Shown in pieces: positions 8,552 to 51,122 of a DNA stretch of 55,350 nucleotides. The notes under the pieces are model-generated. The model saw only the letters and a list, made by a program, of their open reading frames with translations, did not search any database and had not been told where the DNA came from. The number at the start of each line of letters is the position of its first letter. Position 1 is the first letter of the stretch. Position numbers and translations under genes: made by a program. Source of the stretch: an uncultured Anaerolineales bacterium (GTDB taxonomy: Bacteria > Chloroflexota > Anaerolineae > B4-G1 > SLSP01); contig CAYMAQ010000003.1 in assembly GCA_964388385.1 (NCBI GenBank), forward strand, positions 1 to 55,350, given 5' to 3'.

Positions 8552-8603
8552 ATCAGAAACAACTCCTCAACCTCTTTTCTCAAGCGCCAGCCTGATCCCA
8601 ACT

Positions 8604-18582: not shown

Positions 18583-18585
18583 AGA

Positions 18586-21771: not shown

Positions 21772-21772
21772 C

Positions 21773-23062: not shown

Positions 23063-23328
23063 CTCACTCCTCAAAAATCCCGCTCCAATTGAACACTACC
23101 ACGTCAAGGATAATCCGACCCAAGCCGGCATAATCTCTGACAGGCCTATGGGATCGATTAGCCAACGCTTAACGGTCTCGTAACAAACAATTTCGTTGCA
23201 GAAACTTGTTTTCTTAACACATTTGTTATGAACACAACTGACACGGACCCGTAACTTCGATTTGAGAGGATCATAGTATAGTAAGAATGCGTTCATTTCA
23301 ACGACCTGGACTTGAAAAGGGGGCATGT

Positions 23329-34089: not shown

Positions 34090-35319
34090 GTGAGCACTGA
34101 GAGTCAAATCATCATCGGTTCAGAACGCATCGGTGGCAAGTTAACGCCCCGTGAACGCTTCCTGAGGACAATGCATTATCAGACAGTCGACCGGCTTCCC
34201 CATATGGAATTCGGATATTGGGCCAGTGTCAAAGAGCGCTGGCTGCGTGAAGGACACATGCCGAACGATCTACCCCGCAACGCGGATGGAGAGATCCACC
34301 ATCACGCAGTCGAAACGTGGTTTGGCTGCGAGCACCGGACTGGCGTCAGTCCGCGCATCGGGGCCGGTCCACATCGGCCTGTTAAGATTCTGGAGGAGCG
34401 TAACGGTAAAGTCATCTATCGAGATGGGCTCGGCGTGCTCTGTGAGGAAGTCAAAGAAGGCATCCGCAGCATCCCCCACTTCCTGGAGTTCCCTGTGAAG
34501 GACCGCCGAACCTGGGCCAACTTCCGCGACGAGTTCCTGGACATTGACGCCGATTGGCGGGGGCAATCCCAGGAGGAGATCGAGGAAAAAGCCGGAGCGC
34601 TTCGCAAAAGCACTCAGCCTGTCGGCATCGGGTTCGGATCATTCATTGGTAAGATCCGCGATTGGGTCGGATTTGAGAACCTGGCCTATATGTCTCACGA
34701 TGACCCCGAGTTACTCGAGGAGATGGTCGCCCACGTCACAGCCCTCAAGTTACGCTATCTTCCCCCACTTCTCGATGCGATTGCCTTCGACTTTGCAAGT
34801 GGATGGGAGGACATCGCGTTCAACAGCGGTCCCCTGTTGAGCCCCCAAGTCTTCAAAAACACTATTATGCCGCATATGAAACCGGTGATGGAATGCCTGA
34901 GGGAGCACGGGATAGACATTATCTTTACCGACTGCGATGGCAACGTCAATCACCTCATTCCTTTATGGCTCGACGTAGGGCTCAATTGTGCTTTCCCACT
35001 GGAAGTCCGGGCGAACAATGATATCGTGGCCTTACGCAGAAAATACGGGCGGGAACTCTTGGTCATCGGCGGATTCGATAAGTTCCCCTTACTCGACTCG
35101 AAGGAAGCCATCCTGAATGAATTCCGTCGTCTGGAACCTGTAGTACAAGATGGCGGATTCATCCCGCACATCGACCACCGGTGCCCCGATGGCGTTGACT
35201 ACGGGCTGTACCGCTACTACATTCGGGAAAAATGTGCATTTCTGGGAATGTCTGAGGAGGAGATCTCGCAAATCCCAGCCTTCCGTGAGTCAATCTCACC
35301 TGCTGACCAGGAGGCGTGA
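34090..35319 (+). CDS. Uroporphyrinogen decarboxylase (URO-D) family protein
   Basis: GTG start after AAGGAG. C-terminal-half pattern W.DIAFNSGPLLSPQVF...IIFTDCDGNV...GLNCAFPLE, typical of URO-D/MtaA-like TIM barrels. Confidence 0.7.
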   Translation: MSTESQIIIGSERIGGKLTPRERFLRTMHYQTVDRLPHMEFGYWASVKERWLREGHMPNDLPRNADGEIHHHAVETWFGCEHRTGVSPRIGAGPHRPVKILEERNGKVIYRDGLGVLCEEVKEGIRSIPHFLEFPVKDRRTWANFRDEFLDIDADWRGQSQEEIEEKAGALRKSTQPVGIGFGSFIGKIRDWVGFENLAYMSHDDPELLEEMVAHVTALKLRYLPPLLDAIAFDFASGWEDIAFNSGPLLSPQVFKNTIMPHMKPVMECLREHGIDIIFTDCDGNVNHLIPLWLDVGLNCAFPLEVRANNDIVALRRKYGRELLVIGGFDKFPLLDSKEAILNEFRRLEPVVQDGGFIPHIDHRCPDGVDYGLYRYYIREKCAFLGMSEEEISQIPAFRESISPADQEA

Positions 35320-36116
35320 TGTTCTATTTTCTCTCCAAATTTCTCCCCCTTGTGGTCTATCCCGTGGGATCGACGTGCCTGTTGCTGATCGTCGCACTCT
35401 TTCTAAGCCATCATCCGATCTGGCGGACCCGGTTGCTGATTGTCGCTCTGCTCGTGATCTGGCTGAGCGGCAATCGCATCGTCAGCATGGCCCTGCAGCG
35501 CTCGCTGGAGAGTCGCCATCCCCCGATAAGCGACCCTGTACAAGCGGATGCCATCGTCGTCCTTGGTAGCGGCACCCGCGAGGGTGCCGCACCCCGCCCC
35601 ACCTCAGAGGTCGGTGAGGCGGGCGACCGGGTTATCTACGCTTCCCATCTCTACCATACCGGTGCAGCGCCTCTGATCGTCGTGTCGGGGAGTCACGCAC
35701 CCTATACGAACCCCGGAGGACAATCTGGAGCTGAGGTAATGAAAACCTTTTTAGACCTCCTTCACGTGCCATCCGAAGCTGTTCTCACCGAAACTCAGTC
35801 CAAAAACACCTACGAAAACGCAGTTGAGACCGTGTCGCTGCTGAGAGATCGGGGCGTCGAGCATATCATTCTCGTTACCTCGGCGACCCACATGCCACGA
35901 TCGTATGCGATCTTTCGACAGTTCGAGGATCTGAAGGTGACCCCTGCACCCACGGATTTCCAGGTGACCGATTCCGATTGGCGATACTACACACAGCTCA
36001 ACCTTGGCGTTCAGTTGATGAATCTGCTGCCTCAGGCCGATAGCATCCTGGCGACCACAATCGTACTCAAGGAGTACATTGGAATCGTGATCTATCACCT
36101 TCAGGGATGGCTGTAA
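35316..36116 (+). CDS. YdcF/DUF218 family protein
   Basis: DAIVVLGSG and LVTSATHMPRS motifs with N-terminal TM helices. 4-nt overlap with the upstream gene. Confidence 0.75.
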   Translation: MMFYFLSKFLPLVVYPVGSTCLLLIVALFLSHHPIWRTRLLIVALLVIWLSGNRIVSMALQRSLESRHPPISDPVQADAIVVLGSGTREGAAPRPTSEVGEAGDRVIYASHLYHTGAAPLIVVSGSHAPYTNPGGQSGAEVMKTFLDLLHVPSEAVLTETQSKNTYENAVETVSLLRDRGVEHIILVTSATHMPRSYAIFRQFEDLKVTPAPTDFQVTDSDWRYYTQLNLGVQLMNLLPQADSILATTIVLKEYIGIVIYHLQGWL

Positions 36117-36230
36117 CCGACCGGAAGTTTGTGTTATCGTGCCCGGCGTGATATCCTAGGAACGTAGTGGATGAATAACCTGACAGGATAACAGTAACGA
36201 TCACAATTCACCAACCGGCCGTTCTGATAA

Positions 36231-37397
36231 TTGATCAGGTTCGACAAATTCCGTGAACATCAGATCGACAAGACAGGAGGCAGACGCTTGATCCCCATCT
36301 ATGAGAGTCCGTTCGAAGTCGACGTTACGCCTGATTGGGAGGCCTTCCGGGATTGTATCCTCCGCAAAGGCACGCCTAACCGGGTTCATCATATCGAGTT
36401 GTTCCTCGATCGAGAGGTACAGGATGAAATCTGTGAACGCTATCACCTTCTGGATGATCTCGACATCGAGGATCAGGCTTTCCCCTACCAACGTATGATC
36501 CGCATCCAGCGGTTCTTAGGCTACGATTACGTCCGCCAGGGCGTGGATGACTTGTATATCCCGCTCAATCGTCTGCTGACCGAGGATACCGCCGAATTGA
36601 CCCGGGAAACCGGACGAAGCTACATCGACGAGTCCAAAGGCCCCATCACGAACTGGGAGGAATTCGAGCGATACCCGTGGCCCGACCCTGATGACGTGAC
36701 CACAAAGGGGCTGGAGTGGTACGAAAAGCATCTACCGGACGATATGTGCGTCATCGGAAGTGGCGGGTTTGCACATTTCGCCGAGTACCTGACGTGGCTG
36801 ATGGGCTACGAAACCCTCTGCTTCGCCCTCTTTGATCAGCGTGACCTGGTCCGCGCCATCGCTGACAAGCTGATGGATCTATTCACCGCGATGCTGGACC
36901 GCATCCTTGAGTTCGAGCGGGTGACCATCGTCTGGGGCAGCGATGATATGGGATTCAAAACTGGTCCGATGATCAGCCCCGATGACCTCCGTGAGTTCGT
37001 CCTCCCAGGCCACAAAAAGATGGCGGAAATGTCTCACCTCAGCGGCAGACCCTATATCCTACACGCCTGCGGCAACCTCTTCTCGATCTATAACGACCTC
37101 ATCGAGGACGTTAAAATCGATGGTAAACATTCATTTGAGGATACGATCGAGGACGTGCGAAACCTGAAGCTGACCTACGGACAGCGCATGGCCTTGCTTG
37201 GCGGTATCGACGTGGACTTTCTCTGCCGTGCCGACGAGGATGCCATCCGGGCTCGGGTTCGCGATACGCTCGAGATATGTATGCCCGGAGGGGGATATTG
37301 CCTGGGGACCGGCAACAGCGTCGCGAACTACATACCGTTGGAAAACTACCTTGCTATGGTCGATGAGGGGCGATCCTATCGACCTGCCGGGTCGTGA
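36231..37397 (+). CDS. Uroporphyrinogen decarboxylase (URO-D) family protein (second copy)
   Basis: WGSDDMGFKTGPMISPDDLREF...YILHACGNL...IDGKHSFED. The start is uncertain: TTG at 36231, or TTG at 36288 preceded by GGAGG. Confidence 0.7.
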   Translation: MIRFDKFREHQIDKTGGRRLIPIYESPFEVDVTPDWEAFRDCILRKGTPNRVHHIELFLDREVQDEICERYHLLDDLDIEDQAFPYQRMIRIQRFLGYDYVRQGVDDLYIPLNRLLTEDTAELTRETGRSYIDESKGPITNWEEFERYPWPDPDDVTTKGLEWYEKHLPDDMCVIGSGGFAHFAEYLTWLMGYETLCFALFDQRDLVRAIADKLMDLFTAMLDRILEFERVTIVWGSDDMGFKTGPMISPDDLREFVLPGHKKMAEMSHLSGRPYILHACGNLFSIYNDLIEDVKIDGKHSFEDTIEDVRNLKLTYGQRMALLGGIDVDFLCRADEDAIRARVRDTLEICMPGGGYCLGTGNSVANYIPLENYLAMVDEGRSYRPAGS

Positions 37398-37906: not shown

Positions 37907-39868
37907 ATGCACGAACTCTACAAGCCGCGGTTCCGACCGCTGCCGTTAGGGAGCGTCCATCCCACGGGTTGGCTTAAAAATCAGCTGCGCATCCAGGCCG
38001 AGGGGATAAGTGGGCATTTGGATGAGTTCTGGCCCGATGTCCGGGACAGCCAATGGTTCGAGGGAGATGCCGAAGCCTGGGAGCGCGCGCCTTACTGGCT
38101 CGATGGAATCATCCCGCTGGCTTACACCCTTGACGATCCGGCCCTCAAAGAGAAGGTCAGACGATACATGGACCTCATCATCGAGCACCAACAAGATGAC
38201 GGTTGGCTGGGCCCGCGGACGATGATTGCGGCGTCGGGACAATCCGCGCAGCCCCGTTATGACCTCTGGGGACAGATACTCGCCACCAAGGTGCTGATGC
38301 AGTATACAGAAGCTACGGGGGACGAGCGGGGGACGACCGCGCTGGCGCGCCTGCTTCGTGGCATCGATCGAACGCTGGATCGAACACCGCTCTTCAACTG
38401 GGGGCAGTTCCGCTGGTTCGAAGCCCTGCTGGCAATCTTTTGGCTGTACGAAAAGCAGGGAGGCATTTGGCTGCTTGATCTGGCGGCAAAGCTCCACGCC
38501 CAGGGCTTTGACTGGGGAGCTTTCTTCTCATCGCCCGCCGGGTGGCCCGCGGCTGCCCCTACTCCGAAGGGACGCTGGAACTATATGAGCCACGTCGTCA
38601 ACAATGCGATGGCGCCGAAGGCGCACGCGCTTTGGTGGCGCCTCAGCGGAGACGAACAGGATCGAGCAGCGGTCTATGAGATACTCAAAAAGCTCCATTC
38701 TCACCATGGGATGGTCACTGGCGTGGTCACTGGGGACGAATGCCTGGTTGGCAAGAACCCCATCCATGGAACCGAGCTTTGTTCGGTCGTGGAACTGGCT
38801 TACTCGCTTGAGGTTCTCGTCTCGATCTTGGGTGATCCGATCTTCGCCGATCAATTGGAGAGGGTGATTTTCAACGCGCTGCCGGCGACCTTCTCACCGG
38901 ATATGTGGTCTCACCAGTACGACCAACAGGTCAATCAGGTGGAATGCAGCATTCGCGATGACCGCATCTGGAGCACCAACGGTCCCGAGTCCAACATCTT
39001 CGGCGTAGAGCCAAACTACGGCTGCTGTACGGCCAATCTGAGCCAGGGATGGCCTAAGTTCGCCGCCCATCTCTGGATGGTTATGGAGGGCGTGGGGAGG
39101 GAGAACGAAGGTCTGGCAGCCACGGCCTACGCACCTTCGACTGCCGAGACGATGATTCAGGGGGTTCCCGTAAGCGCAGAGATCGACACCGAGTACCCAT
39201 TCCGCGACGAAATACGTGTCCACGTCGACACCAAAACCCCGGTACGTTTCCCACTTCTACTGCGGGTTCCGGAATGGAGCAAAGATCCTATAATCCGACG
39301 AGCGGATGGCTCGGAAACCCCGTTGAATCCGGGTTCGTTCCATCGGATCGAACGCACGTGGAAGGGAAAATCGGAACTCATTCTCCGCTTCCCAATGCCG
39401 ACCTACTATTGGCGCGGATTCAGAAACGCAACCGCGGTGCATCGGGGACCGTTGGTATACGCACTCAAAGTCGGGGAGCGATGGGAGCGAGTTCACGAAG
39501 ACGAGCCCTACCGCGAGTTACCTCACGGCGACTGGGAGGTCTACCCGACCACACCTTGGAACTACGCTTTGGTACCGGATGAGACCACCGCAAAGCTTGA
39601 CCTGATATTCGAGACCCATCCAATGGGTGACTGTCCCTTCTCTCCTGAGGGCGCACCGGTCACAGCGCGGGTTAAAGCACGCCGGTTGCCCGATTGGCAA
39701 ATCGAGCACGGATCGACCGACGAGACCCCAATGAGCCCGGTCTCCTCGGAAGAGCCGGCGGAGACAGTAACCCTCATCCCTTACGGCTGCACGAACTTGC
39801 GCATTACCGAGTTCCCAACCACGGATATCGTCATCAAGGACAGGAAAGGAGCGCCTGATGGATCGTGA
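37907..39868 (+). CDS. Glycoside hydrolase family 127-like (beta-L-arabinofuranosidase/DUF1680)
   Basis: 653 aa. The N-terminal GWLKNQL pattern and EPNYGCCTANLSQGWPKF cysteine motif are typical of GH127. Confidence 0.7.
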   Translation: MHELYKPRFRPLPLGSVHPTGWLKNQLRIQAEGISGHLDEFWPDVRDSQWFEGDAEAWERAPYWLDGIIPLAYTLDDPALKEKVRRYMDLIIEHQQDDGWLGPRTMIAASGQSAQPRYDLWGQILATKVLMQYTEATGDERGTTALARLLRGIDRTLDRTPLFNWGQFRWFEALLAIFWLYEKQGGIWLLDLAAKLHAQGFDWGAFFSSPAGWPAAAPTPKGRWNYMSHVVNNAMAPKAHALWWRLSGDEQDRAAVYEILKKLHSHHGMVTGVVTGDECLVGKNPIHGTELCSVVELAYSLEVLVSILGDPIFADQLERVIFNALPATFSPDMWSHQYDQQVNQVECSIRDDRIWSTNGPESNIFGVEPNYGCCTANLSQGWPKFAAHLWMVMEGVGRENEGLAATAYAPSTAETMIQGVPVSAEIDTEYPFRDEIRVHVDTKTPVRFPLLLRVPEWSKDPIIRRADGSETPLNPGSFHRIERTWKGKSELILRFPMPTYYWRGFRNATAVHRGPLVYALKVGERWERVHEDEPYRELPHGDWEVYPTTPWNYALVPDETTAKLDLIFETHPMGDCPFSPEGAPVTARVKARRLPDWQIEHGSTDETPMSPVSSEEPAETVTLIPYGCTNLRITEFPTTDIVIKDRKGAPDGS

Positions 39869-41069
39869 AACCTGGCGAGAAACGGTGGGGATGTTGCCGG
39901 TCTTCGATACCCACACGCATCTGAATAAGCCCGGCGTTCCGATTCCAGCTCAGAGTTTCTGGGATATCGCTCACTATTTCTGGTTTCAACAGGAGCTGAG
40001 GTCGGTGGGGTATCCCTCCAACGCACCCGAGCTTCCCGAAGAGACCCGGATCGATGCCTTCGTAGAAGCCTTTAACGCCGTACGTAACACGGCGTGGCAT
40101 CTCATCGTGCGTCGCATCTGCAAAAACCTCTACGATGTGCCGCTGACCGATCAGAAGGGACGCGCTACGCCGGACCACGTTCGGGACGTCGATGCTGCCA
40201 TCCGGGCATCTTCGCAGCAGCCAGGATGGTCCAAGTCGGTGATCGACCGACTTGGGATCCGACGTATCACCGTGAACAACATTGCCGACAGCAAATTTCC
40301 CAGGTTACCCGGAGTCGGCGTCTCGGTACCCACTTGGGACGAGCTACAGACGTGGTCTGACAAACTTATGAAATCTACACGTCCGGAGTGGGTACTCAAG
40401 GAAGCGCAAGCAGCTATCGAGGCCACAATCTCTCGCCTCAAGGATCAGGGAATCCGAGGCATGCGGGTGGATGCTGACATCTTCGAAGCCCAGGGGAAAG
40501 CAGCCGTCAATCTGCACAATCCGCCGCACACTACGCCGCTTGAGCAGTGGCAGGCAGAGGCACTCCTCATCCACCGCCTCCTCGATCTCCTTGGTGATTA
40601 CGGTATGTTTGCGCAGTTCTTCCTTGGCATTGAGCGGGACGTCACCCCCCATACCGCGATGGCGGTCAACGATCCAAGGCGAATCATCAATCTCTATCCT
40701 CTTTTCGAAGTCCATCCTTGCGACTTCGAGTTGGTGGTAGGTGCACCGCAGAACAATATGGACACCGCCCAGGCCGCCCGGATTTATCCGAACGTCTATG
40801 CCGGCGGGCTCTGGTGGTACAATTTCCGTAACAGCACATACCGACAGACGATGCAAGTACGTTTGGAAGCGGTGCCGGCAGGCAAAAGCGCCCTGGTCGC
40901 GTCGGACGCTCGGTGCATCGAATGGTGCTATGGGAAAATTCTCCTGGTCAAGCGGTTACTGGCAGACTTCCTCTATGATCAGATGGACCGAGGATGGATT
41001 AATGAGACGGATGCGCTGTGGGTTGCGCGCGAATGGCTCCACGATGCGGCGGCTCGCCGGTATATCTGA
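39858..41069 (+). CDS. Amidohydrolase-fold protein (uronate-isomerase-like)
   Basis: FDTHTHL metal-binding start of a TIM-barrel amidohydrolase. 11-nt overlap with the GH127 gene. The precise family is uncertain. Confidence 0.5.
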   Translation: MDRETWRETVGMLPVFDTHTHLNKPGVPIPAQSFWDIAHYFWFQQELRSVGYPSNAPELPEETRIDAFVEAFNAVRNTAWHLIVRRICKNLYDVPLTDQKGRATPDHVRDVDAAIRASSQQPGWSKSVIDRLGIRRITVNNIADSKFPRLPGVGVSVPTWDELQTWSDKLMKSTRPEWVLKEAQAAIEATISRLKDQGIRGMRVDADIFEAQGKAAVNLHNPPHTTPLEQWQAEALLIHRLLDLLGDYGMFAQFFLGIERDVTPHTAMAVNDPRRIINLYPLFEVHPCDFELVVGAPQNNMDTAQAARIYPNVYAGGLWWYNFRNSTYRQTMQVRLEAVPAGKSALVASDARCIEWCYGKILLVKRLLADFLYDQMDRGWINETDALWVAREWLHDAAARRYI

Positions 41070-41081
41070 ATCCTGCAGCTT

Positions 41082-41165
41082 GAGATCCAGACATAAAACA
41101 CCGAGCTTTTCACAATGGTCGCAGAAACGCGGAAAAGCCTGAACGAGCGATGATCCAATCCACAC
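41082..41165. repeat. Intergenic repeat family, copy E (hairpin 41105-41111 / 41132-41138)
   Basis: GAGATCCAGACATAAAACAC (18 of 20 identical to copy A), then GCTTTTC[loop]GAAAAGC, then GATGATCCAATCCACAC. Confidence 0.8.
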
Positions 41166-41216
41166 CCGGGTGCGGTGCATACCGGCGATACGCCCGGTAT
41201 CATGGGCAGATCAATG

Positions 41217-42278
41217 TCAGTGCGGATGCTGTGTCTCTGACTCACCGGTGACCACGGCCCGAAAAAGATGGCACTCCCACAGCCTTTGTGCGGCATCCAG
41301 GTCGATGACCTCCCAGGGCATGCAGAGGACCTTAAACGTCTCGGGATCGTAGGCAGCGTGACGGGCAATCCATCGTCCAGGGGGTGGGCCTGCCAGTGTC
41401 CAGAGCGGTTCCAGATTCATCTCCACCTTCTGAAACAACGCCGGATGCGCTAACAGGGTCCTCAACAGCCCGAAGAGTCCAGGCGGGCCCTCCGGCAGCG
41501 GCGGATCGACGAGGGGAACCAGTGTGTCAATAGGAACCGGCTTGTCCGTATATGCAAACAATCCACGCGCTAAGGTTACGACCTGGGTTTCACTCAGCGA
41601 AGGCGAGAGCGCCCGCAGATACCACAAAGCGTGAAGATGCAGAAACCGATCATCCGCCAACAAAGCGGAGAGCACCTGCTCGGCGAGTGTGTCGCCATAA
41701 CGCCACAGCACATAGTCGACCTGTTGTTCCTCCTCATCACTTTTGAAAAGAGCATCGAGGTCGCCCGTTGAGACCTGTCTGCCAACGGCATCGGTCGGTT
41801 CACCCTTACGATACGTGCGCAGTTCCGAAAGCCCATCGATCGATACGGTGAACACCTCGCCCTCGACGCGGGTGATGACCCCGATCTGTGGGACGTACGT
41901 TCGCCCGAGGGCCGGACTGGGTATAGCAAAAATGGCGCGATCTCCGGCTCCCCACGTCTCGGCCGGATCCCAGAATCGGACGGATGGCGTATCCCTTCGG
42001 ACGCGGACTGAGGCGTCACCCGTCAGTTGCGGACCTGATCGAAGTCGAGAGCGAATGAGCTCCCGAACCAGGGCTGTGAGCGTACATGCCTCTTTTTCTG
42101 AACGGATGAACACGGCAAGGCGCGAAAGGTCCGGTCGGGTCACACTGAAGAATTGAGTCCAATAGCGGTGATAGAAGAGCGTATTGTGCCGAAAACGACC
42201 TAACGCCATCTTCCGGGAAGGCCTGCTGTCCCGCTCTTCCGGCCTAAGAGCATCGAGCCCAGGACTGAAAGGCCACAT
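41217..42278 (-). CDS. Partner protein S1 of the methyltransferase-like module (unknown family)
   Basis: 353 aa counted from the ATG at 42278, which is 10 nt after the P1 stop and preceded by GAGGAG. The ORF-track TTG start at 42317 would overlap P1 by 29 nt. Paralog of 45726..46685: shared TLTAL.R..IR.RLR.G, VRFWDP..W..GD.A.F, W(Y/F)LR(A/S)L, Q(V/L)VTLAR, YDP.T..V(L/I)C. Confidence 0.7.
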   Translation of the reverse strand: MWPFSPGLDALRPEERDSRPSRKMALGRFRHNTLFYHRYWTQFFSVTRPDLSRLAVFIRSEKEACTLTALVRELIRSRLRSGPQLTGDASVRVRRDTPSVRFWDPAETWGAGDRAIFAIPSPALGRTYVPQIGVITRVEGEVFTVSIDGLSELRTYRKGEPTDAVGRQVSTGDLDALFKSDEEEQQVDYVLWRYGDTLAEQVLSALLADDRFLHLHALWYLRALSPSLSETQVVTLARGLFAYTDKPVPIDTLVPLVDPPLPEGPPGLFGLLRTLLAHPALFQKVEMNLEPLWTLAGPPPGRWIARHAAYDPETFKVLCMPWEVIDLDAAQRLWECHLFRAVVTGESETQHPH

Positions 42279-42288
42279 ATCTCCTCGC

Positions 42289-45200
42289 CTAGACACTATC
42301 AACCGGGAGAGATCCAACGCCCCGCTCCGCCACCATTGACCTATGGGTGAGAACGCAAGACGTTTTACCGCCCCGTTTTGCCGTCAGTTTTCGCGCCATC
42401 TTCACATAAACCGCATAGGGATCGCGAAAGGGCTGATCTTCCGAACCTGGCACGAATCGAGCGGCCCTGCTTAGTTCTCGTTCAGAGATCTTGGGCACCT
42501 GACCGATCACGGCATCGAATCCCGGATCATCGGCCCAGGTTCGATGCTCGAGGTCGATAAAAGCATCGATAAACATCAACGACCAATGAAAACAAGCCCC
42601 GGAAGCCTGAGAGCGCGCCAACAGCGCTTGCATTTCATCATCGAGAACGGCCTCGCCTTGGAGAACCTGCAGCAAAGAGCCCCACCACCGATCGAGCAAG
42701 TTCTTGGCTTCACCGTCACCTAAGACAGCTTGAACGTGCACGTCCAAATACTGTCGATAGGGACGTAAAATCTGCTCGGCGCGCTCAAATTGCTTCATAC
42801 TCCAGCGGACGTCCAAAGCCGAGGTATTGACCCGATCGACAACGGAATACATCGTACTCGCACCCTCGAATAACCGTGCCATCTCCAGAGGCGCTTGCTC
42901 CAGGGCGCGAAGTGAATCCAGGTCCGTACCGATCAAACTGTTTCCCATTCGAAGCCGGTGATTGAAAAAGACAAAAGGCGCACCCTTCACAAAGGTCCTT
43001 AGCCAAAGGCCGACCTGCGTCAGGTCGATCGCGACCGGGTCGCGGTCCACTCCGTAGATGCAGTGCTGGGCGATAAGCCGCCGCATAACAGCCACATCAC
43101 TAAGGAAGTATGCCTCGATGTCGATACCTTGTCGACCAAGTTCACCCGCCACGTCATGCCGAACCCGCTCGAATAGACGATGCAGCGGGTTCCAACGCCA
43201 CGGCACGTCGGGATGTTCATCGTGATAGGCTTGCATCTGCTGGATGACGCCATCGGTAATCACATCCAACGCACTGAGTAAAAACGTCCCGGTTCCCATC
43301 GCGGGGTCCAAGACCCGCAGCCCAAGCAGCGCATCACAGGCCGCACGGGAAACCGTTTCGAGTGACGCCTGCACCTCAGCGCGATCCCTTGCATCAAGCG
43401 TCCGCTGCAGCCTGCGGCGCAAGGTGACCACCCGATCCATCGCCCTGGCAAACTGCGCACCGCGATGCTCGAGTAAGGGCTTAAGAACCTGAGCGGCGAC
43501 ATCCGTAGCCACATAGTCCGGGATGCCCACTCGCCCGTGACCGCTGGCATCAGAGGCTGAATCGATGAACATAACCTCACCGCTGGCAGCGTCGATCACC
43601 CGGAGATCGATATCCAGCAGAGGCGCGAGAACAGCGCTCAGTTCGTATGCACTGAAACTCGCGTAATCGACATCGCGCTGAAGCGTATCCAATACCTCTG
43701 CTAGCACAGCGTCGCTCAGGCGATGTTCGGCGATAAACGCATGCTCGGAATAAGCCTCGGGATCAAAGAAGACGGGGCCGTACTGCGGAAGATTTTTCAA
43801 CGCGTCCCCGGCGTTCACACGATGCAGCATTGAGAGCAGAATGTCATAGTGCGGCGTCGTATAGAGTCCGACGCTTGGCGGGATACCTCCCTCAACGCAG
43901 ACATCCACCCAAGACAGCAAAGACTTGAGACTGTGCGGTCGGTATTCCGGGTCATCAACAGGCAGAAGGAACCTGGCTTCGGCCACAAAGAGGAATAGAA
44001 TCCGGGCCAAAAGGGACAAACTGGCGCGCTTAATGAACTGCAGGCTTTCCGCATCCTCGTCGGAGATATCAAGTCGCCGATTGCGATAGGCCACAAATCC
44101 GCCGGCGATTGCCGGAAAGACCTTTTGGGCAATACACGTGCGCAGGTAGACCCGACTCTCCTGTTTTCGCGCGGGTGAGGACTCATAGAGGCGATCGAGA
44201 AAACTCCCACCCTCCCCGTCAACGACAAAAGCATCGCGCCTAAAGAGCATCCACCATTGACGAAGTAACACCCACTGAGAAGGGGTCAGGGAGTCGCACT
44301 CGCTCAACCGCTCAAACAGAGGACCGAGGTCCACTTCATGAAATTCCGTAACGATACTGTTCGCTCGGCGGGTGAACAGCCGCCACTTTCTTCCATTGGT
44401 CAGGATCCCCCACGACACATGATGGCGCATTAACGCGCGAACGATCTGATAGCTGGGCGTTGACATTTCATCCTTCAGACTATCCGGATGCCGCCACCAG
44501 CGGGACTCGGGGGACGAGTGTGCATCCAGTGAGCCTGACCAAGCTGCGGTCTGAACTAGAGCAAGGCCCCAGCCGGAAACGGAGCACGGACCGCCTCGCT
44601 GCGTATAGAGAGCCGCACAAGCGGCTTGATCTCGACAGAGTATGTGCTGCTTCGGCTGAGCCGTACGCGATCGCCGGGCTGGCACCTGGGAATCCAGAAC
44701 CGATAACGGGACCGAAGACCACCCTAATGCCGTCAACAAGGGCTGAACCAGCGCGGTTTCGGTCCTCTGGTCATCCCATTCATGCCCCTGGCTTCGCGCT
44801 CGAGACCACAGGGCGCGAATAGCCTTATAAATGATATTGAGATCCGCATCCCAATCCGGGTCGCGTTTCAGCTTACGTTGCAGATATTGATTGGGAAAAA
44901 GAGCACCGGGCTGGAGCAAAACACCCTCGCGGGACGTCTGGTCCTCAGAGAGCTTGGTAAGCCGGTGAATGGGAATCTGCCCCTGATCGAACAGGGAATC
45001 CAACAATATCGCCAGCGCAGCATCCAGTACGTCTGGACTCATCGGGGGGAAGAATTCGCGCAAACATCCGTACTCCCCCCCCTGATGGTAAAGCATAATA
45101 AACCGGGGGTCGGCAGCTAGGGACTGACGGACTCGCGGAAGAAAGGATGCTTCTTGAACTTCGAAGAGTGTATCGACAACCTGCTCACTGACCATCGCAG

Positions 45201-45534
45201 GAGAAAGGGTAGTAGGGGCGCGATCGATTTCAGCAGCGACACGGACATTTTCGCCTCCTTTCAACCTGAGAGTTAGGATTTTGAAGTTTCCCTGGACGAC
45301 ATTTTGGGCGTTTTGAGCGTTTACGACATCGCCCACGAGGCCGTTGAATCGCAAGCGCGTACCAGGAGGATATTGCCCGCCGGGTGCGAAGACAGGCGTC
45401 CCATTGTCAGTTGTCAAATAAGATCGTATCGCTTCGCGGGCCAGGTTCGCCAATGACACCGGGGCTTCCTGTTCGCGAATCAAATCAGCAAGTCGATCGA
45501 GATTGATATCTTGAATGGGAATCCGTTGAGACAC
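42289..45534 (-). CDS. P1: Eco57I/PglX-like (COG1002-type) gamma-class N6-adenine DNA methyltransferase homolog; catalytic tetrapeptide degenerate, no C-terminal TRD
   Basis: 1081 aa, GTG start after GGAGG. Ordered motifs: ALVQPLLTALGW; WGILTNGRKWRLF (44374-44412); LFLFVAEARFLLP; SAM motif I VLDPAMGTGTFL (43279-43314); IYGVDRDPVAIDL (43021-43059); RMGNSLIG; FHWSLMF...GFDAVIGQVPK (42490-42519). Confidence 0.8.
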   Translation of the reverse strand: MSQRIPIQDINLDRLADLIREQEAPVSLANLAREAIRSYLTTDNGTPVFAPGGQYPPGTRLRFNGLVGDVVNAQNAQNVVQGNFKILTLRLKGGENVRVAAEIDRAPTTLSPAMVSEQVVDTLFEVQEASFLPRVRQSLAADPRFIMLYHQGGEYGCLREFFPPMSPDVLDAALAILLDSLFDQGQIPIHRLTKLSEDQTSREGVLLQPGALFPNQYLQRKLKRDPDWDADLNIIYKAIRALWSRARSQGHEWDDQRTETALVQPLLTALGWSSVPLSVLDSQVPARRSRTAQPKQHILCRDQAACAALYTQRGGPCSVSGWGLALVQTAAWSGSLDAHSSPESRWWRHPDSLKDEMSTPSYQIVRALMRHHVSWGILTNGRKWRLFTRRANSIVTEFHEVDLGPLFERLSECDSLTPSQWVLLRQWWMLFRRDAFVVDGEGGSFLDRLYESSPARKQESRVYLRTCIAQKVFPAIAGGFVAYRNRRLDISDEDAESLQFIKRASLSLLARILFLFVAEARFLLPVDDPEYRPHSLKSLLSWVDVCVEGGIPPSVGLYTTPHYDILLSMLHRVNAGDALKNLPQYGPVFFDPEAYSEHAFIAEHRLSDAVLAEVLDTLQRDVDYASFSAYELSAVLAPLLDIDLRVIDAASGEVMFIDSASDASGHGRVGIPDYVATDVAAQVLKPLLEHRGAQFARAMDRVVTLRRRLQRTLDARDRAEVQASLETVSRAACDALLGLRVLDPAMGTGTFLLSALDVITDGVIQQMQAYHDEHPDVPWRWNPLHRLFERVRHDVAGELGRQGIDIEAYFLSDVAVMRRLIAQHCIYGVDRDPVAIDLTQVGLWLRTFVKGAPFVFFNHRLRMGNSLIGTDLDSLRALEQAPLEMARLFEGASTMYSVVDRVNTSALDVRWSMKQFERAEQILRPYRQYLDVHVQAVLGDGEAKNLLDRWWGSLLQVLQGEAVLDDEMQALLARSQASGACFHWSLMFIDAFIDLEHRTWADDPGFDAVIGQVPKISERELSRAARFVPGSEDQPFRDPYAVYVKMARKLTAKRGGKTSCVLTHRSMVAERGVGSLPVDSV

Positions 45535-45725
45535 CTATCCTCCAAAGATGGTAAAATAGATCGTAGACCGGAGGTCCATCATGCTGAGAGCGCACCCAGA
45601 AGTCCAAACAACTGGGCACTCTGCCCTTAGTATAGGGTGGAATGAATCAACGGGGATTAAATTCAGGTTACGGGGCGGTTACATTCAGCTAGAAGTAAAC
45701 GATCTCGAATCCCAAACAGAATCCA

Positions 45726-46685
45726 TCAAGGCGATCCATAGACTGCGGTCGCTAGCAGGCCCAACTGCCAGAGCAGCTCGACCTGGTTTGAGTTCAGATG
45801 ATCGCCGTTTTCGCAGATGACCTCATACGTCCGGGGATCGTAAACCGCGAACTTGGCCTCGTAATTCCCAGGGGGTGGGGATACGAGAACCCAACGAGTA
45901 TAGCGCCCGGCTTCAACGCGAGAGAATAGGCCGGGACGCTCTGACATAGCCAAGCCAAACCCAAACGATGTAGGCGGATCGTCAGCCTCGGTTAACGGCA
46001 TCAGACTGAGAAGTTCAGATAGCCGCACGCCGTCCGATGACTCGATTAGCAGCGTGCGCGCCAGAGTCACAAGCTGTGCTTCGTTGGGATACTTGACCAG
46101 CGATCGCAGAAACCAACGCCCTTCCCACTCAACAAATCGCCCATCCGAGCGCAGGGCAGCCAGAAGCCCTCCTATAATGTGAGGACCGTGCTGGAAAAGC
46201 ATATGATCGATCCGGGCTCGTTCGCTTCGAGATTGTCCGAGGCGGGCAATATAACGGTCTAAGGAGGCGCGCCATCTCGTGATCTCCGCATTGTCATGAC
46301 GGGCGGGCATTCCCCACATACGGGGCATCTCCTCCCCATCAATCTGAGCGATTAACGCCGTATCCATAACCCTTGCAACTTGACCGGCACGCGGCTCCTG
46401 TCTCAGTACACCGTGCCGCGTGTAGGTAACCGGAAAGACGGCCCAATCCCCGGGATGCCAGGCCTTCAAAGGGTCCCAGAACCGAACCACTCCCTCATCA
46501 GGAATCGGAATGAGATGACCCGACTCTTGCCCATATCGCAGACGGCCCCGAATCCAACGCCTTGCCAGGGCAGTGAGTGTGAATGCCTCACCTGCCTTGC
46601 GCATACGTCGAACGAAACGTTCGAGATCCACCTCAAAGACTCGAAATATCGTCCGATTCCGGGGAGACCTCAACGGAATGTTCAT
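45726..46685 (-). CDS. Partner protein S2 of the methyltransferase-like module (unknown family)
   Basis: 319 aa. Its ATG overlaps the P2 stop as ATGA (46682-46685). Paralog of S1. Confidence 0.75.
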   Translation of the reverse strand: MNIPLRSPRNRTIFRVFEVDLERFVRRMRKAGEAFTLTALARRWIRGRLRYGQESGHLIPIPDEGVVRFWDPLKAWHPGDWAVFPVTYTRHGVLRQEPRAGQVARVMDTALIAQIDGEEMPRMWGMPARHDNAEITRWRASLDRYIARLGQSRSERARIDHMLFQHGPHIIGGLLAALRSDGRFVEWEGRWFLRSLVKYPNEAQLVTLARTLLIESSDGVRLSELLSLMPLTEADDPPTSFGFGLAMSERPGLFSRVEAGRYTRWVLVSPPPGNYEAKFAVYDPRTYEVICENGDHLNSNQVELLWQLGLLATAVYGSP

Positions 46686-49600
46686 CGTCCTATGCTCCTG
46701 AGATGCTCGGGGGTCATCACCAGAGCGATACGCCCACCGGGAGAACGTACGAGCTGGTGCGCTAGTCTCTCAAAGAGGCCTGAACGATCCGCTGCCGATG
46801 GATGCACATCATCCGATCTCGAAACGGACAGAGACCCCACATGACGACCATGCTCAGGTCCAATCGTTGGAGGGCTGCCGATGACGACGTCAAATCCCGG
46901 GCGCACACCGTTCTCTGCGTGCCTGGGATCGTGGAAAACCTCCGGGAATACCAGATCCCAATGGATGAAGCCCTCTTGGATGCTCAGTTCCTCAGCACGG
47001 ATCAAGGCCCGATTCCACGCCGTCGGCCTTGATTCAACCGGTTGGTCGAGGAACCGCACAACATCAGACGCTCTTTGCAACAATCGAGTGACGTCCTCAT
47101 TTCCAACAAACTGGCTTAACCAGAGATCAAGAGCTGCCCTCTCCAGAGGCAGGGACTCTCTAGGGTCATCCAACCGTGAAATCCGTGCCCCCAATGAGGA
47201 AACCCCACCCATCATATCAAGATCGTGCTTTGATGGGAAGTCCAAATCCTGCAGACGTCCACCGAGAAGACTGTTACCCCGGCACAGGTGGCTCCCAAAT
47301 TGCATCTCCCCCCCTCCTCTCGCAAAGGCCCACAGGGAGAGATTAGCTTTTGCCAGGCTCACCGCGATCGGATCGATATCGACGCCATAGATGCACATCT
47401 TGGCGACCCGAGAGGCAATGAGGGCCAAGTCGTCGGGCCAACCGGGACGGAGGTTTAAGCCCAGACTCGACATTCGATGGCGAACGCGGTGCCGATCCGC
47501 AACCAGAGCCCGCAAAATCGGGTTCCAGGATTCAGGAAAATCGGGATGGGTTCGACAATAAGTTTGATACTGCGCAACCGCCCAATCGGTAATGACGTCC
47601 GCCGCTGCAATGAGAAAATGACCAGCCCCCATAGCCGGATCCAGGATCCGCACTCCCAGCAGCGCTTGCTCGGCAAGGTCTTCCGCTTTCGCAATGCGGG
47701 CCTGGACCGCAGGAGACTCACGATCCAAACGCCCTTCGCTCGTGCTCTGCTGCAGACGCATCAACTGATCCATGGCCTTCTCAAAATCCAGCGCCCGGGC
47801 CGAAAGAATCGGTCCTAACGCATCTTCGACAGTGGAGATAACCACGTAATCAGCCGTCGACTTTTCCGCGATTGCCCTTGGCTCGGTATGATTATCGAAC
47901 CAGGTGACTTCCCCGAGTGCGGCGTCGACGACCCACAATGCATTCTGTAGGAGTTCCCCACCGACCATACAGAGATGGCGCAAATCCATAGCAGCAAACA
48001 CGCTCTCGACCTCGCCCTCCACTGACAAAGTGTGTAGAACTTGGGCGATCACGTGGTCGCTCAATCGATGCCGTTCCAAAAAGGCGTGACTGGGCTCGGT
48101 TGCACCGAACAAGCCTCCCTCAATGCGTAAAAGCCCCAGCTCTGGAGCCCCATGGTCGAGTCGACGGAAAAGAGAACACACAGCATCATAACGCGGCGTG
48201 TTCGCTATCGAGGCGCTGAGCGGCGCACCACGGCGAATCATGTGCTCAGCCCAGTGTGCCAACGTCGTTAAACTCGAGGCGCGATAAGCCGCGTTATCCA
48301 TAGGAAGCAGGCGGCGAGTCTCTGCGTAGAGAACAACCAGTAATTTATAGACCATCGACAAACTCGCCCGTCCCACTTCCTGAAGAGAAGCGTCATTCTC
48401 TTCTCGTACAGAGAGTACTTGGTGACGATAGGCGACAAATCCCCCCGCGATCTTCGGCAGCACACGGTCCAAAACCAGATCCCGCAGTCGCTTTACCTTT
48501 CGCCTCGTCCTGCTCGCGAACGTTTCCTGGAGTATTTCGATGAGCGCTCGCCCCTCCGGAGTGCGCACATAGGTATCCCTTCGACACAACAACCACCAGC
48601 GTTGAAAAGCCCTCCACGCTTCTTGGGAAATTTCCCCCGTGGATGCCATCTGATCGATAACCGGGGTCAGGTCAACCTCATAAAACTCCGCGGCGGTGCT
48701 GCCGATGTCGGGATTTCCCCATCGGCGACTGTACAAACGCCATCGCCTTCCATCAGTGACCCCACCCCATCGCACGTCACCCAACGTCAAATCGGCGATA
48801 GTGTTCAGGGCAAGTTCGTCAAACTCGTGAGAAGCCTCTCCAGGATCCGTATTGAAAGAAAGCCCGGTGTTCAAAACCATGGGCGCAGACAGATTATCGG
48901 TTTTTCCATCCTGGAGAGAGTGCCGCAGGGCTTGCTGCTGCTCATCACTGATGCACAGAGCCCACCGGGCATAAACATCTCCACGATTTCGATCGCAACC
49001 TGTGGAATCGGGATCCGTGATTTTTTGCAGACGGAGAGGTTGCCAGCCCAAAGCATCGAGTAGGGGTTGGACAAAGCACGTCTGGATGTCTTCCGGGAGG
49101 CACGCACTCTCCGAGTTCGACGCTGGCTGCCACAGTGAGCAAAACGTAGACAGCATAGACCGAGCCCTTTTCTCCCAATCCAGATGCTCGGACCATAGTT
49201 CCTCGAGGCTATCATCGGGGAGGAAATGAAGCGGACGGATCTGCGGAACCGTTGCGAGATGCGACATAGAATCCGGAGGGACTGCAGGAGACGCGGGGAA
49301 CGTGTCGGGATCGAGGTCGCGAATATCCGAAAGGTTGAGCCAGGGTGCCTCTTCCCGCAGGGCGTCTCCGTGCGTAGCAAGCACACCGTGGACCAGAGAG
49401 TCTGGAACCGCAAAACTCAGATCTCCGTCAGGATTTGGCGTCGAAAATGGCGCCGGGGATTGCGTCGCAACACACCGCCGAGATCCATCCCGCATCTCGA
49501 GATCAACGACAGCGAACCCACCTTGCCTGGGGTTCCCCCCCTCACGAACCTCCACAACGCGGGCCACATCCCCATCGATACCCACCCAATCACCAGCTTC

Positions 49601-49750
49601 AAACCGGCTTTCAGGTTGGAAAGGTCGGAGATTGCCTGGAATAGGAGCGTGCTGACGCACGTGATCCCACAGGATCTGTCGAACCGTTTTGAGAGGATCG
49701 GTTGCAGGATCGCATCGCTGTAAAGCTTGTATCAGGAACTCGGAATCCAT
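46682..49750 (-). CDS. P2: Eco57I/PglX-like (COG1002-type) N6-adenine DNA methyltransferase homolog; motif IV is SPPT, no C-terminal TRD
   Basis: 1022 aa. FVQPLLDALGW; WGGVTDGRRWRLY; LVVLYAETRRLLP; motif I ILDPAMGAGHFL (47612-47647); IYGVDIDPIAVSL; CRGNSLLG; FIHWDLVFPEVF...GFDVVIGSPPT (SPPT at 46865-46876). Colinear with P1. Confidence 0.8.
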   Translation of the reverse strand: MDSEFLIQALQRCDPATDPLKTVRQILWDHVRQHAPIPGNLRPFQPESRFEAGDWVGIDGDVARVVEVREGGNPRQGGFAVVDLEMRDGSRRCVATQSPAPFSTPNPDGDLSFAVPDSLVHGVLATHGDALREEAPWLNLSDIRDLDPDTFPASPAVPPDSMSHLATVPQIRPLHFLPDDSLEELWSEHLDWEKRARSMLSTFCSLWQPASNSESACLPEDIQTCFVQPLLDALGWQPLRLQKITDPDSTGCDRNRGDVYARWALCISDEQQQALRHSLQDGKTDNLSAPMVLNTGLSFNTDPGEASHEFDELALNTIADLTLGDVRWGGVTDGRRWRLYSRRWGNPDIGSTAAEFYEVDLTPVIDQMASTGEISQEAWRAFQRWWLLCRRDTYVRTPEGRALIEILQETFASRTRRKVKRLRDLVLDRVLPKIAGGFVAYRHQVLSVREENDASLQEVGRASLSMVYKLLVVLYAETRRLLPMDNAAYRASSLTTLAHWAEHMIRRGAPLSASIANTPRYDAVCSLFRRLDHGAPELGLLRIEGGLFGATEPSHAFLERHRLSDHVIAQVLHTLSVEGEVESVFAAMDLRHLCMVGGELLQNALWVVDAALGEVTWFDNHTEPRAIAEKSTADYVVISTVEDALGPILSARALDFEKAMDQLMRLQQSTSEGRLDRESPAVQARIAKAEDLAEQALLGVRILDPAMGAGHFLIAAADVITDWAVAQYQTYCRTHPDFPESWNPILRALVADRHRVRHRMSSLGLNLRPGWPDDLALIASRVAKMCIYGVDIDPIAVSLAKANLSLWAFARGGGEMQFGSHLCRGNSLLGGRLQDLDFPSKHDLDMMGGVSSLGARISRLDDPRESLPLERAALDLWLSQFVGNEDVTRLLQRASDVVRFLDQPVESRPTAWNRALIRAEELSIQEGFIHWDLVFPEVFHDPRHAENGVRPGFDVVIGSPPTIGPEHGRHVGSLSVSRSDDVHPSAADRSGLFERLAHQLVRSPGGRIALVMTPEHLRSIGR

Positions 49751-49837
49751 CGTAACCCTATGGGATTGAGAGAAGAAGGAAACCTGCTTGAATGACGACT
49801 GCCATCAGGATCGGGAACCCACACTTCGTTGAGTGCG

Positions 49838-49866
49838 AGTATACCATTGCTTATCAAAGCCGCAAA
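49838..49866 (-). promoter_or_regulatory. Candidate extended -10 promoter for the P2-S2(-P1-S1) genes
   Basis: On the minus strand: TTTGCG, 17-nt spacer, TATACT with an upstream TG (TGGTATACT, the same extended -10 as the tRNA promoter). About 85 nt upstream of the P2 ATG. Confidence 0.35.
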
Positions 49867-49919
49867 TTTGGGTGGCCCGGAGTCGGTCTCGTAGACAAAA
49901 AGATATCCAGCAGACGGAG

Positions 49920-51122
49920 TTAATCTTCCGTTTCTGCGCTCTGCCGTGTTTCCTCCTCGGGGGGCTTCGCAAAACGTCGCTCCTCAAAGCTGATCGTCCC
50001 GTTATTGACGTGAATGATCGCCATGGATTTGATGGGATTGTGCATTTCATCGAAAGTCAGCCACCCAGATACCGTATCAAAAGAGGACGTCTCGAGGATC
50101 TGGCTCACACCGTAAGGATCAGGATAACCTGCAGCCTCAACAGCCGCAAAGAGCACGTTAGCCGTGTCGTAAGCCAGCGTAGCCAATGTATCCGGGGGAA
50201 CAAGATAGCGGGTCTCATACAGGGAAGACCATGTTGCGACGACCGATCGCGGCTCCGAAACGAAATAATGAACCGGAAAATAGCTGTCGTCAACGGCGCT
50301 CACGTCCAGGACGGGGGACTCCCATCCATCGCTGCCCACAATCGGTTGGAACATTCCAAAGGTCCGCGCCTGAGGCACCAATCTGTTGATCACAGAATAA
50401 TAACCGGGCAGATAAAGTACGTCAGGATCGGCTTCACGTATCGGCTCCAAGACATCATAGAACTGCGAGGCATTCTGATCGTAAGTCTCTCGTGCGATCA
50501 CCTCGCCACCCTCGCCCTCGAAAGCTCCCCTGAAAGCAGCAACCAGCGCCGAGCCATAGCCCCCTTGTTCCGCATAGAGAATACCAGCCGTCTCCGCGCC
50601 CAACGTGTCCGCGGCGAACTTGGCAGCGATGACACCCTGGTCGGGATCGGTGACCGGTATCCTGAAGACCAAGGGGCGTAAGGAGCCCGCGGCATCCTCG
50701 GTCAAATCGGCATCCACTGAGGCGGGACTTATCTGCAGAACCCCGGCCTCTGAGGCAATTTGTGCGACACCTTCGGAGGCGTCCGCGCAAACAGCGCCGA
50801 TAATAAACAACATCCCCTCGTCATTGATGACCGACTGCGCCGCAGATCGAGCGGTCTGATAATCACATGCGCTGTCTTCCAGGACAACCCGTACCGGCTG
50901 GCCTAATACTCCCCCACGCTCGTTCTGAGCTTCAACCGCGAGCAAAATCCCATTTCGCACCGACTGTCCGAGACTGCCGTATGGATCGCCGAAAGGTGCA
51001 ATGACCGCAAACTCGAAAGCACTGGTTTGCGGCTCGCCCCCAAACAATCCGCAGGCAGACAGAGTCCATACAAATAGACAGAGAACCAGCACAGCGACCC
51101 GTGTAGAGCATCTCGAGTGCAA
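49920..51122 (-). CDS. Branched-chain amino-acid ABC transporter substrate-binding lipoprotein (LivJ/K-like)
   Basis: Periplasmic-binding-protein type I pattern. I chose the TTG start at 51122, 6 nt after GGGAGG, which gives the lipoprotein signal MHSRCSTRVAVLVLCLFVWTLSAC. The ORF-track start at 51182 abuts a terminator. Confidence 0.75.
   Translation of the reverse strand: MHSRCSTRVAVLVLCLFVWTLSACGLFGGEPQTSAFEFAVIAPFGDPYGSLGQSVRNGILLAVEAQNERGGVLGQPVRVVLEDSACDYQTARSAAQSVINDEGMLFIIGAVCADASEGVAQIASEAGVLQISPASVDADLTEDAAGSLRPLVFRIPVTDPDQGVIAAKFAADTLGAETAGILYAEQGGYGSALVAAFRGAFEGEGGEVIARETYDQNASQFYDVLEPIREADPDVLYLPGYYSVINRLVPQARTFGMFQPIVGSDGWESPVLDVSAVDDSYFPVHYFVSEPRSVVATWSSLYETRYLVPPDTLATLAYDTANVLFAAVEAAGYPDPYGVSQILETSSFDTVSGWLTFDEMHNPIKSMAIIHVNNGTISFEERRFAKPPEEETRQSAETED

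Follow-up and report, generated by a model that had tools for sequence, protein, structure and literature searches.

The window analysed here is the whole 55,350-nt stretch (positions 1 to 55,350 of contig CAYMAQ010000003.1) from an uncultured Anaerolineales bacterium, and its gene P1 encodes a protein related to the Eco57I/PglX-type DNA methyltransferases (MTases). P1 has probably descended from a single-chain Type IIG/IIL (MmeI/PglX-like) restriction–modification enzyme and been exapted for a non-catalytic role. The catalytic motif IV, which reads NPPY in full-length relatives, is replaced by QVPK. Having lost both motif IV and the FPEVF box, P1 is predicted with high confidence to be unable to flip and methylate an adenine by the canonical mechanism. 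The P1 paralog P2 and the gene S2 lie upstream of P1 and the gene S1 lies downstream, all on the same (minus) strand (Table 1).

The near-C-terminal region of P1, read from the translation of 42289–45534 (minus strand), is GACFHWSLMFIDAFIDLEHRTWADDPGFDAVIGQVPKISERE. The segment FDAVIGQVPK (nt 42490–42519) stands where relatives read FDaviGNPPY. Alignment of P1 with its 60 best homologs using MAFFT placed QVPK in the GNPPY/GNPPW column block and FIDAF on the FPE(V/L/I)F column. The same register was obtained with a profile hidden Markov model (HMM) built from 62 full-length relatives (1396 positions), in which 'FDAVIGQVPKI' was aligned to the consensus 'FDaviGNPPYv' with the highest posterior probability. 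A pattern scan found no other (D/N/S)PP(Y/F/W) in P1, and the expression [DNSQ]PP[YFWH] had no match anywhere in P1, P2, S1 or S2. The Pfam Eco57I model (PF07669) matched residues 824–1068 of P1 with 23.0 bits, below the gathering threshold of 25.3. The motif IV that follows β4 in γ-class N6-adenine DNA methyltransferases is thus absent from P1. A preliminary description of the gene had reported the loss of both boxes at these coordinates and had proposed an enzyme that is catalytically dead; these observations are borne out, a canonical NPPY elsewhere in P1, which would have contradicted the proposal, was not found, and the proposed inactivity is well supported by the loss of motif IV and FPEVF, the variability of the aromatic position and the end of the protein shortly after β5.

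The aromatic residue of motif IV stacks on the flipped adenine and is hence required at that position. An ortholog search over 5.8 billion proteins revealed five close orthologs of P1 (P0002–P0006) with 62–74% identity and lengths of 1078–1091 aa. Their motif IV regions read GQVPE, GQVPE, GQVPR, GQIPV and GQVPA, each with a F(L/I)DA(F/Y) box, so that Q(V/I)Px is present in all six members of this QVP clade when P1 of the window is included. The fourth residue, K/E/E/R/V/A across the clade, is free to vary. Because five independent orthologs share the replacement, QVPK is neither a chance change nor a sequencing error, and the Q(V/I)Px sequence is fixed in a clade and not private to the window. 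The single substitution Y511A in the NPPY of Escherichia coli BrxX is sufficient to abolish DNA binding, methylation and defence (PMC11842806).

The loss of motif IV is the last step of a family-wide inactivation. The preliminary description had regarded P1 as an Eco57I/PglX-type enzyme that is intact in other respects, and this part of it could not be maintained, as the nuclease is dead, the C-terminal third has been lost throughout the family and the protein is not a PglX. The best PADLOC matches of P1 were DrmMI (1.7e-44) and a Type IIG restriction endonuclease-methyltransferase (2.9e-33), the DrmMI match spanning only residues 732–1023. The AlphaFold2 (AF2) model, calculated from a 61-sequence alignment, was confident (pLDDT 84.8, pTM 0.80) and contained only five Rossmann strands, at residues 741–743, 826–830, 861–863, 1008–1012 and 1057–1061. 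The complete class I Rossmann sheet (β1–β7, motifs V–VIII) is therefore not present; strands β6 and β7 with motif VIII, and the target-recognition domain (TRD), are absent from both the model and the alignment. P1 covers positions 3–922 of the 1396-position profile of full-length relatives, and no match to TaqI_C or to the MmeI TRD, the C-terminal domains expected of a Type IIG/IIL enzyme, was found in P1. The nuclease-like domain has likewise lost the residues that define a Type IIG/IIL nuclease, with RPD replaced by KQH and AEAK by VQTA. A Foldseek comparison of the model with the PDB gave the PglX/BrxX structures 8Q56, 8C45 and 9EWZ (E 6e-6 to 8e-5) and MmeI (5HR4) as the best matches; a phmmer search of P1 against PDB sequences gave 0 matches.

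P1 and about 30 other proteins (P0001–P0033), with lengths of 1025–1129 aa, form a truncated family of about 1060–1090 aa that is confined to Anaerolineae-type Chloroflexota and all members of which end about 15 aa after the 'GGRTxxVLSREWL' strand (β5). In the alignment the D, E and K residues of the nuclease are absent from every truncated member and present in the full-length relatives. The nearest of these relatives (P0034–P0045; 34–39% identity, 1316–1443 aa) contain every expected motif, namely RPD...A(I/V)AE(A/V)KYW, DPAMGSGHFL, YGVDLN, FPEVF, GNPPY and C-terminal domains of the TaqI_C/MmeI type, and occur as solitary genes in variable contexts.

The half of the fold that binds S-adenosylmethionine (SAM) is better preserved. 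P1 contains an intact motif I (DPAMGTGTFL), motif II (YGVD) and motif III (GNSL) in the alignment, so that at the sequence level both the DPAxGxGxFL loop and the acidic residue of motif II are retained. The preliminary description was correct in both the position and the residues of motif I. SAM binding by P1 is plausible because motifs I–III are intact in this protein and β1–β3 are conserved, and P1 of the window may still bind SAM. This is held with moderate confidence only, as the GxG loop and motif III are not the same in all members of the clade.

The other branches of the family have lost different residues. Sequences of the P2 group (16 sequences) have a mostly intact motif I, a retained YGVD and a FPEVF box, which reads FPDVF or FPRVF in four of them. 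Their motif IV consists of (S/N/R)PP followed by A, T, S, V, L or P, the aromatic residue being missing in 16/16. P2 of the window has intact motifs I and II and an intact FPEVF, and its Pfam Eco57I score (32.3 bits) is above the threshold; it looks like a second, differently degenerate pseudo-methyltransferase of the cassette. The P1 proteins outside the clade of the window have an intact motif I and a FPExF box, and their motif IV, (N/S/T/A)PP(W/H/Y/R/L), is drifting. Their motif II reads FGV(A/S/G/T), so that NPPW-type P1 proteins (e.g., L002, L003, L008–L021) have lost the acidic residue that the QVP clade keeps. Within the clade, motif I is intact in 5/6 (RTG in P0004), YGV(D/E) is kept, the box is F(L/I)DA(F/Y) and motif IV is Q(V/I)Px. 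Since the acidic residue of motif II was lost only in the non-QVP P1 proteins, cofactor-binding and catalytic residues were lost independently in sister branches, as would be expected if selection on methyl transfer ended when the family was truncated. QVPK is the most advanced state of this erosion.

The truncated proteins also carry an N-terminal module of approximately 185 aa (N-module), which is present in all members and absent from the full-length relatives apart from P0046. It is the densest invariant block of the family (DPRF..LY...E...LR..FP.MSP.VLD.A.A..LD; more than 20 invariant residues), seen in P1 as DPRF..LY...FFPPMSPDVLD. The S family is homologous to this N-module, with an hhalign probability of 97.7% (E 1.6e-12). 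The possibility that S represents the lost C-terminal MTase/TRD part was considered and rejected, the corresponding hhalign probability being 0.1%. In Foldseek the S1 model resembled Fur-like winged-helix proteins and Tudor/PWWP barrels only in part.

An S-family profile detected an S-like module in 249 representative proteins at E<1e-3. These include stand-alone proteins of approximately 250–280 aa, proteins of 520–570 aa and coiled-coil proteins of approximately 1300 aa with the module at the N-terminus (examples are P0163, P0216, P0225–P0232 and P0235–P0272). Their automatic names are uninformative, and no Pfam domain was found in them other than coiled-coil noise. The exception among the larger relatives, P0046 (1370 aa, on a 4376-bp metagenome contig and cut by the contig end), has the N-module at residues 3–190 followed by an insert of approximately 600 aa, and its Type IIG part keeps the nuclease motif RPDYALF...AIAEAKYW. 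P0046 is possibly an intermediate in which the N-module was gained before inactivation.

P1 is under selection. Comparison with three orthologs by the Nei-Gojobori method gave a dN/dS of 0.11–0.15 for P1, 0.17–0.18 for S1 and 0.08–0.14 for the neighbouring GH127 and 403-aa genes, values which are rough because dS is saturated (1.1–2.2). This purifying selection, with dN/dS of approximately 0.1, indicates that P1 is not a pseudogene, and the P1 open reading frame (ORF) is intact in 15 species-level genomes. The most conserved part of the protein is residues 111–185 of the N-module, with an identity of 0.74 within and 0.61 between clades, followed by β1–β3 of the MTase with 0.70 and 0.49, respectively. 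The least conserved structured parts are the β3–β4 insert and the segment from the box through β4 to β5 (0.55 and 0.27–0.32). At a GH127 identity of approximately 0.65, non-clade P1 pairs are 45–58% identical and pairs across the clade boundary only 35–45%, while the rate of P1 within the QVP clade is ordinary. P1 therefore evolved faster on the stem of the QVP clade and came under purifying selection again afterwards, as would be expected of a functional shift and not of decay. The stem acceleration is also seen in S1. With GH127 controlled for, the divergence of P1 co-varies with that of S1 (partial r 0.74) and P2 (partial r 0.80), although with nine genomes and non-independent pairs this is only suggestive.

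Among 185,579 species-representative genomes that were scanned, 15 contain the family, all of them metagenome-assembled genomes of Anaerolineae, Thermoflexales or 'Chloroflexia'. The order P2-S2-P1-S1 was observed in 13/13 loci with a whole cassette; in the other loci, where a contig end interrupts the cassette or P2-S2 has decayed, the genes that are left keep the same order. As in the window, most cassette loci are flanked by an ABC transporter for branched-chain amino acids on one side and a GH127 glycosidase on the other. The fixed site and conserved order are those of vertical inheritance and not of a defence island. Neither the scanned ORFs of the window nor the called genes of the related loci contained BREX or DISARM partners.

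The P2-S2 half of the cassette has a different history within the QVP clade. Both genes are intact in the window, and tblastn showed them intact in the genome of P0002 (L022), where P2 is cut only by the contig end. The genome of P0005 (L023, about 8580–9790) has a 95-aa remnant of P2 and a frameshifted S2. At the locus of P0004 (L001 6839–9769, identical with L007 4809–7739) P2 is in three pieces and has lost residues 499–796, and the first 66 residues of S2 are missing. In the 13 non-QVP loci whose flanks were long enough to judge, P2-S2 showed no decay of this kind. As decay is confined to the QVP clade, P2-S2 is dispensable where P1 has lost motif IV, while P1-S1 is still selected.

The proposed course of events is as follows. 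An ancestor of the family would have lost the PD-(D/E)xK residues of the nuclease and everything C-terminal to β5, that is, β6/β7 with motif VIII and the TRD, and would have gained the N-terminal winged-helix/SH3-like module that it has in common with the partner S. On the stem of the QVP sub-clade, motif IV of P1 would then have changed from NPPW to Q-V/I-P-x and the FPEVF box would have disappeared, while motifs I–III, the SAM-binding half of the fold, were apparently retained. P1 probably acts with S1, and ancestrally also with P2-S2, as a scaffold that binds nucleic acid or protein, the conformation or binding of which may still respond to SAM. Recognition would be provided by the winged-helix/SH3 modules in place of a TRD. 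That P1 and S1 together form such a non-catalytic binding scaffold with this mode of target recognition is considered probable, with low to moderate confidence. More tentatively, the P2-S2-P1-S1 cassette could represent an undescribed, vertically inherited module of the Anaerolineae, a fully domesticated Type IIG system, stripped of nuclease, methyl transfer and TRD, that possibly serves as a SAM-sensing, non-catalytic nucleoprotein scaffold with a regulatory or chromosome-associated role rather than one in defence, recognising its target through the winged-helix/SH3 module shared with S.

Several points weigh against this account. The SAM motifs are imperfectly conserved in the clade, with DPSMRTG (RTG for GTG) in P0004 and an altered motif III in P0003 (GQGL) and P0006 (GEGL), and SAM binding by P1, although plausible, is read from the motifs. 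S1 and S2 belong to no Pfam, NCBIfam or PADLOC family, and the S1 model had no match in the PDB with E<0.001 using Foldseek. The genes around the cassette are metabolic, and no function can be read from the setting. To these may be added the roughness of the dN/dS values and the decay of P2-S2 in 2/4 QVP-clade genomes with P1-S1 intact, which could mean that the whole system is on its way out.

One alternative is that P1 is a decaying relic, a recently inactivated restriction–modification gene that drifts towards loss and has no function. Such a course would account for the progressive erosion of the catalytic motifs across the family, for the pseudogenised P2-S2 and for the faster evolution of P1 on the stem of the QVP clade. 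ORFs of approximately 1080 aa nevertheless persist across orthologs of 62–74% identity and class-wide at 35–45% identity, and P1 evolves with a dN/dS similar to that of the neighbouring housekeeping genes, at an ordinary rate within the clade, with more than 20 invariant residues in its N-module and in a cassette whose synteny is conserved in 15 species-level genomes. A functionless relic is therefore very unlikely. About as improbable, or slightly more so, is a P1 that is still an active methyltransferase with a non-canonical loop, to which S1 supplies target recognition and perhaps strands in trans, a split arrangement comparable to Type I HsdM/HsdS or BcgI A/B. It would fit the intact motifs I–III of P1 in the window, the retention of an amide side chain by the Q of QVPK, as in N, and the relationship between P1 and S1, which are translationally adjacent, always co-occur and co-vary in divergence. 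The would-be aromatic position is however unconstrained in the orthologs, the first proline of motif IV and the FPEVF box are lost, and β6/β7 and motif VIII are absent from the model; the S family does not resemble the lost C-terminal part and has no MTase-like fold. In BrxX, loss of the aromatic residue by itself is enough to destroy activity (PMC11842806).

A third alternative, improbable although less so than these two, concerns the ancestral state of the cassette. It may have been a heteromer similar to METTL3/METTL14, with an NPPW-type P1 as catalytic subunit, P2 as non-catalytic subunit and S providing specificity, the clade of the window having lost the activity, with P1-S1 retained there in a secondary role that is not catalytic. 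In favour of such a heteromer, (N/S)PPW and FPExF are preserved in most non-QVP P1 proteins, P2 never has the aromatic residue, the divergence of P1 and P2 co-varies, and decay of P2-S2 is restricted to the clade whose P1 is without motif IV. Against such an enzyme, the non-QVP P1 proteins lack the acidic residue of motif II, approximately one third of them carry A or T in place of the N, or L, R or H in place of the aromatic residue, and all truncated P1 proteins are without β6/β7 and the TRD. As regards P1 of the window, this heteromer is compatible with the preferred explanation of P1 as an exapted, non-catalytic Type IIG/IIL descendant.

Among known systems, the closest functional parallel to P1 is an MTase-fold pseudoenzyme, and by descent P1 is a Type IIG/IIL (MmeI/Eco57I/PglX-like) protein. 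As in the Type IIG/IIL enzymes of the MmeI and Eco57I family, the domain order up to β5 consists of a nuclease-like domain, a long helical spacer and a γ-class MTase core, the core containing motifs I, II and III and the FHW...FPEVF...GNPPY block. P1 differs from these enzymes in lacking the D/E/K residues of the nuclease, motif IV, the FPEVF box, β6/β7 and the TRD with the rest of the C-terminal third, in having the extra 185-aa N-terminal module, and in its vertical inheritance at one constant place in the chromosome instead of a variable or defence-island setting. The layout of N-terminal domain, helical region and MTase is also that of BREX PglX/BrxX (8C45, 8Q56 and 9EWZ), the best structural matches of the model; identity to these is however approximately 13%, the NCBIfam PglX model scored 19.5 bits against a cut-off of 500, and no brxA, brxB, brxC, pglZ or brxL neighbours were found near P1 among the scanned ORFs of the window. 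PglX itself has NPPY, a nine-stranded sheet, a TRD and a C-terminal domain (PMC11842806). Unlike DISARM DrmMI, P1 has no drmA, drmB, drmC or drmD helicase, DUF1998 or PLD partners among the scanned ORFs of the window or the called genes of related loci. Membership of BREX or DISARM was rejected, there being no partner genes and the full-length relatives being solitary.

METTL14 (EPPL) is the pseudo-methyltransferase partner in the METTL3-METTL14 m6A writer. It is similarly an MTase-fold paralog with a degenerate (D/N)PP(Y/W), selected as a non-catalytic scaffold beside its paralog. The two systems differ in that lineage and substrate are unrelated, both paralogs of the window (QVPK and SPPT) are non-canonical and truncated, and no catalytic partner can be recognised. 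Methyltransferases of restriction–modification and BREX-type systems are, as a rule, mobile defence genes with a fast turnover. The P1 lineage has lost all three defining activities or domains of such an enzyme, yet has been maintained across the class, by purifying selection, in two paralogous pairs that include a novel partner protein. No account of a family of this kind, or of domesticated or inactive Type IIG methyltransferases, was found in the literature searched. If P1 does bind SAM with no methyl transfer, it would be a bacterial MTase-fold pseudoenzyme that serves as a sensor or scaffold, and a warning for pipelines in which genes of this kind are annotated as 'Eco57I-type methylase', 'DrmMI' or 'Type IIG'. 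A natural series for comparison is available in the relatives of full length that look active, the truncated NPPW form and the QVP form.

Table 1. Features of the P2-S2-P1-S1 cassette, with positions numbered in the window.
Feature	Position	Strand	Description	Basis
P1	42289–45534	minus	1081 aa (1081-codon ORF); truncated, triple-inactivated Type IIG/PglX-like protein	ORF and translation
QVPK	42490–42501 (aa 1012–1015)	minus	in motif IV (NPPY) position	coordinate arithmetic, MAFFT, HMM
FHWSLMFIDAF	42559–42591	minus	degenerate FHWxLxFPEVF box	MAFFT alignment
GGKTSCVLT	42346–42372	minus	strand β5, the last strand; P1 ends 18 aa later, no β6/β7/TRD	
Motif III, MGNSLIG (β3)	42928–42948	minus	intact here	alignment, AF2 model
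Motif II, IYGVDRD	43039–43059	minus	acidic residue kept here, lost in non-QVP P1 orthologs	
Motif I, VLDPAMGTGTFL	43279–43314	minus	SAM glycine loop, intact	alignment
Nuclease-like domain	44539–44655	minus	dead PD-(D/E)xK site; PKQHILC for RPDYALF, ALVQTAAW for AIAEAKYW	
N-module	44980–45534	minus	winged helix, SH3/KOW-like barrel, second winged helix	hhalign, invariant columns
S1	41217–42278	minus	partner protein, approximately 353 aa; most likely start ATG at 42278, 10 nt past the P1 stop, with AGGAGA ribosome-binding site	
S2	45726–46685	minus	S1 paralog (32% identity); start overlaps the P2 stop by 4 nt	
P2	46682–49750	minus	P1 paralog, 1022 aa; 29% identity to P1 over the full length	
P2 motif IV	46865–46876	minus	SPPT (reads GSPPT), no aromatic residue	alignment

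The cassette is neighboured in the window by the ABC transporter, GH127 and URO-D (uroporphyrinogen decarboxylase-like) genes. A scan of 41000–50100 for promoters and terminators gave counts equal to the shuffled expectation. The 403-aa ORF at 39858–41069 (plus strand) has no family assignment in Pfam or NCBIfam and shares 11 nt with the end of the GH127 gene; the ORF keeps this position in related loci, with 75–80% identity within the clade. A DUF218 gene between two URO-D-family genes (34090–37397, plus strand) is an arrangement also kept in related loci. Further away, the minus strand at 17392–23074 contains a row of genes for a NurA nuclease, a Rad50/SbcC-like SMC ATPase with a zinc hook (1079 aa) and an Mre11-like metallophosphatase, which is a DNA-end-resection cluster of the archaeal style. 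The plus strand at 13807–17226 encodes a regulator-like protein of 1139 aa with BTAD, AAA_16 ATPase and TPR domains.

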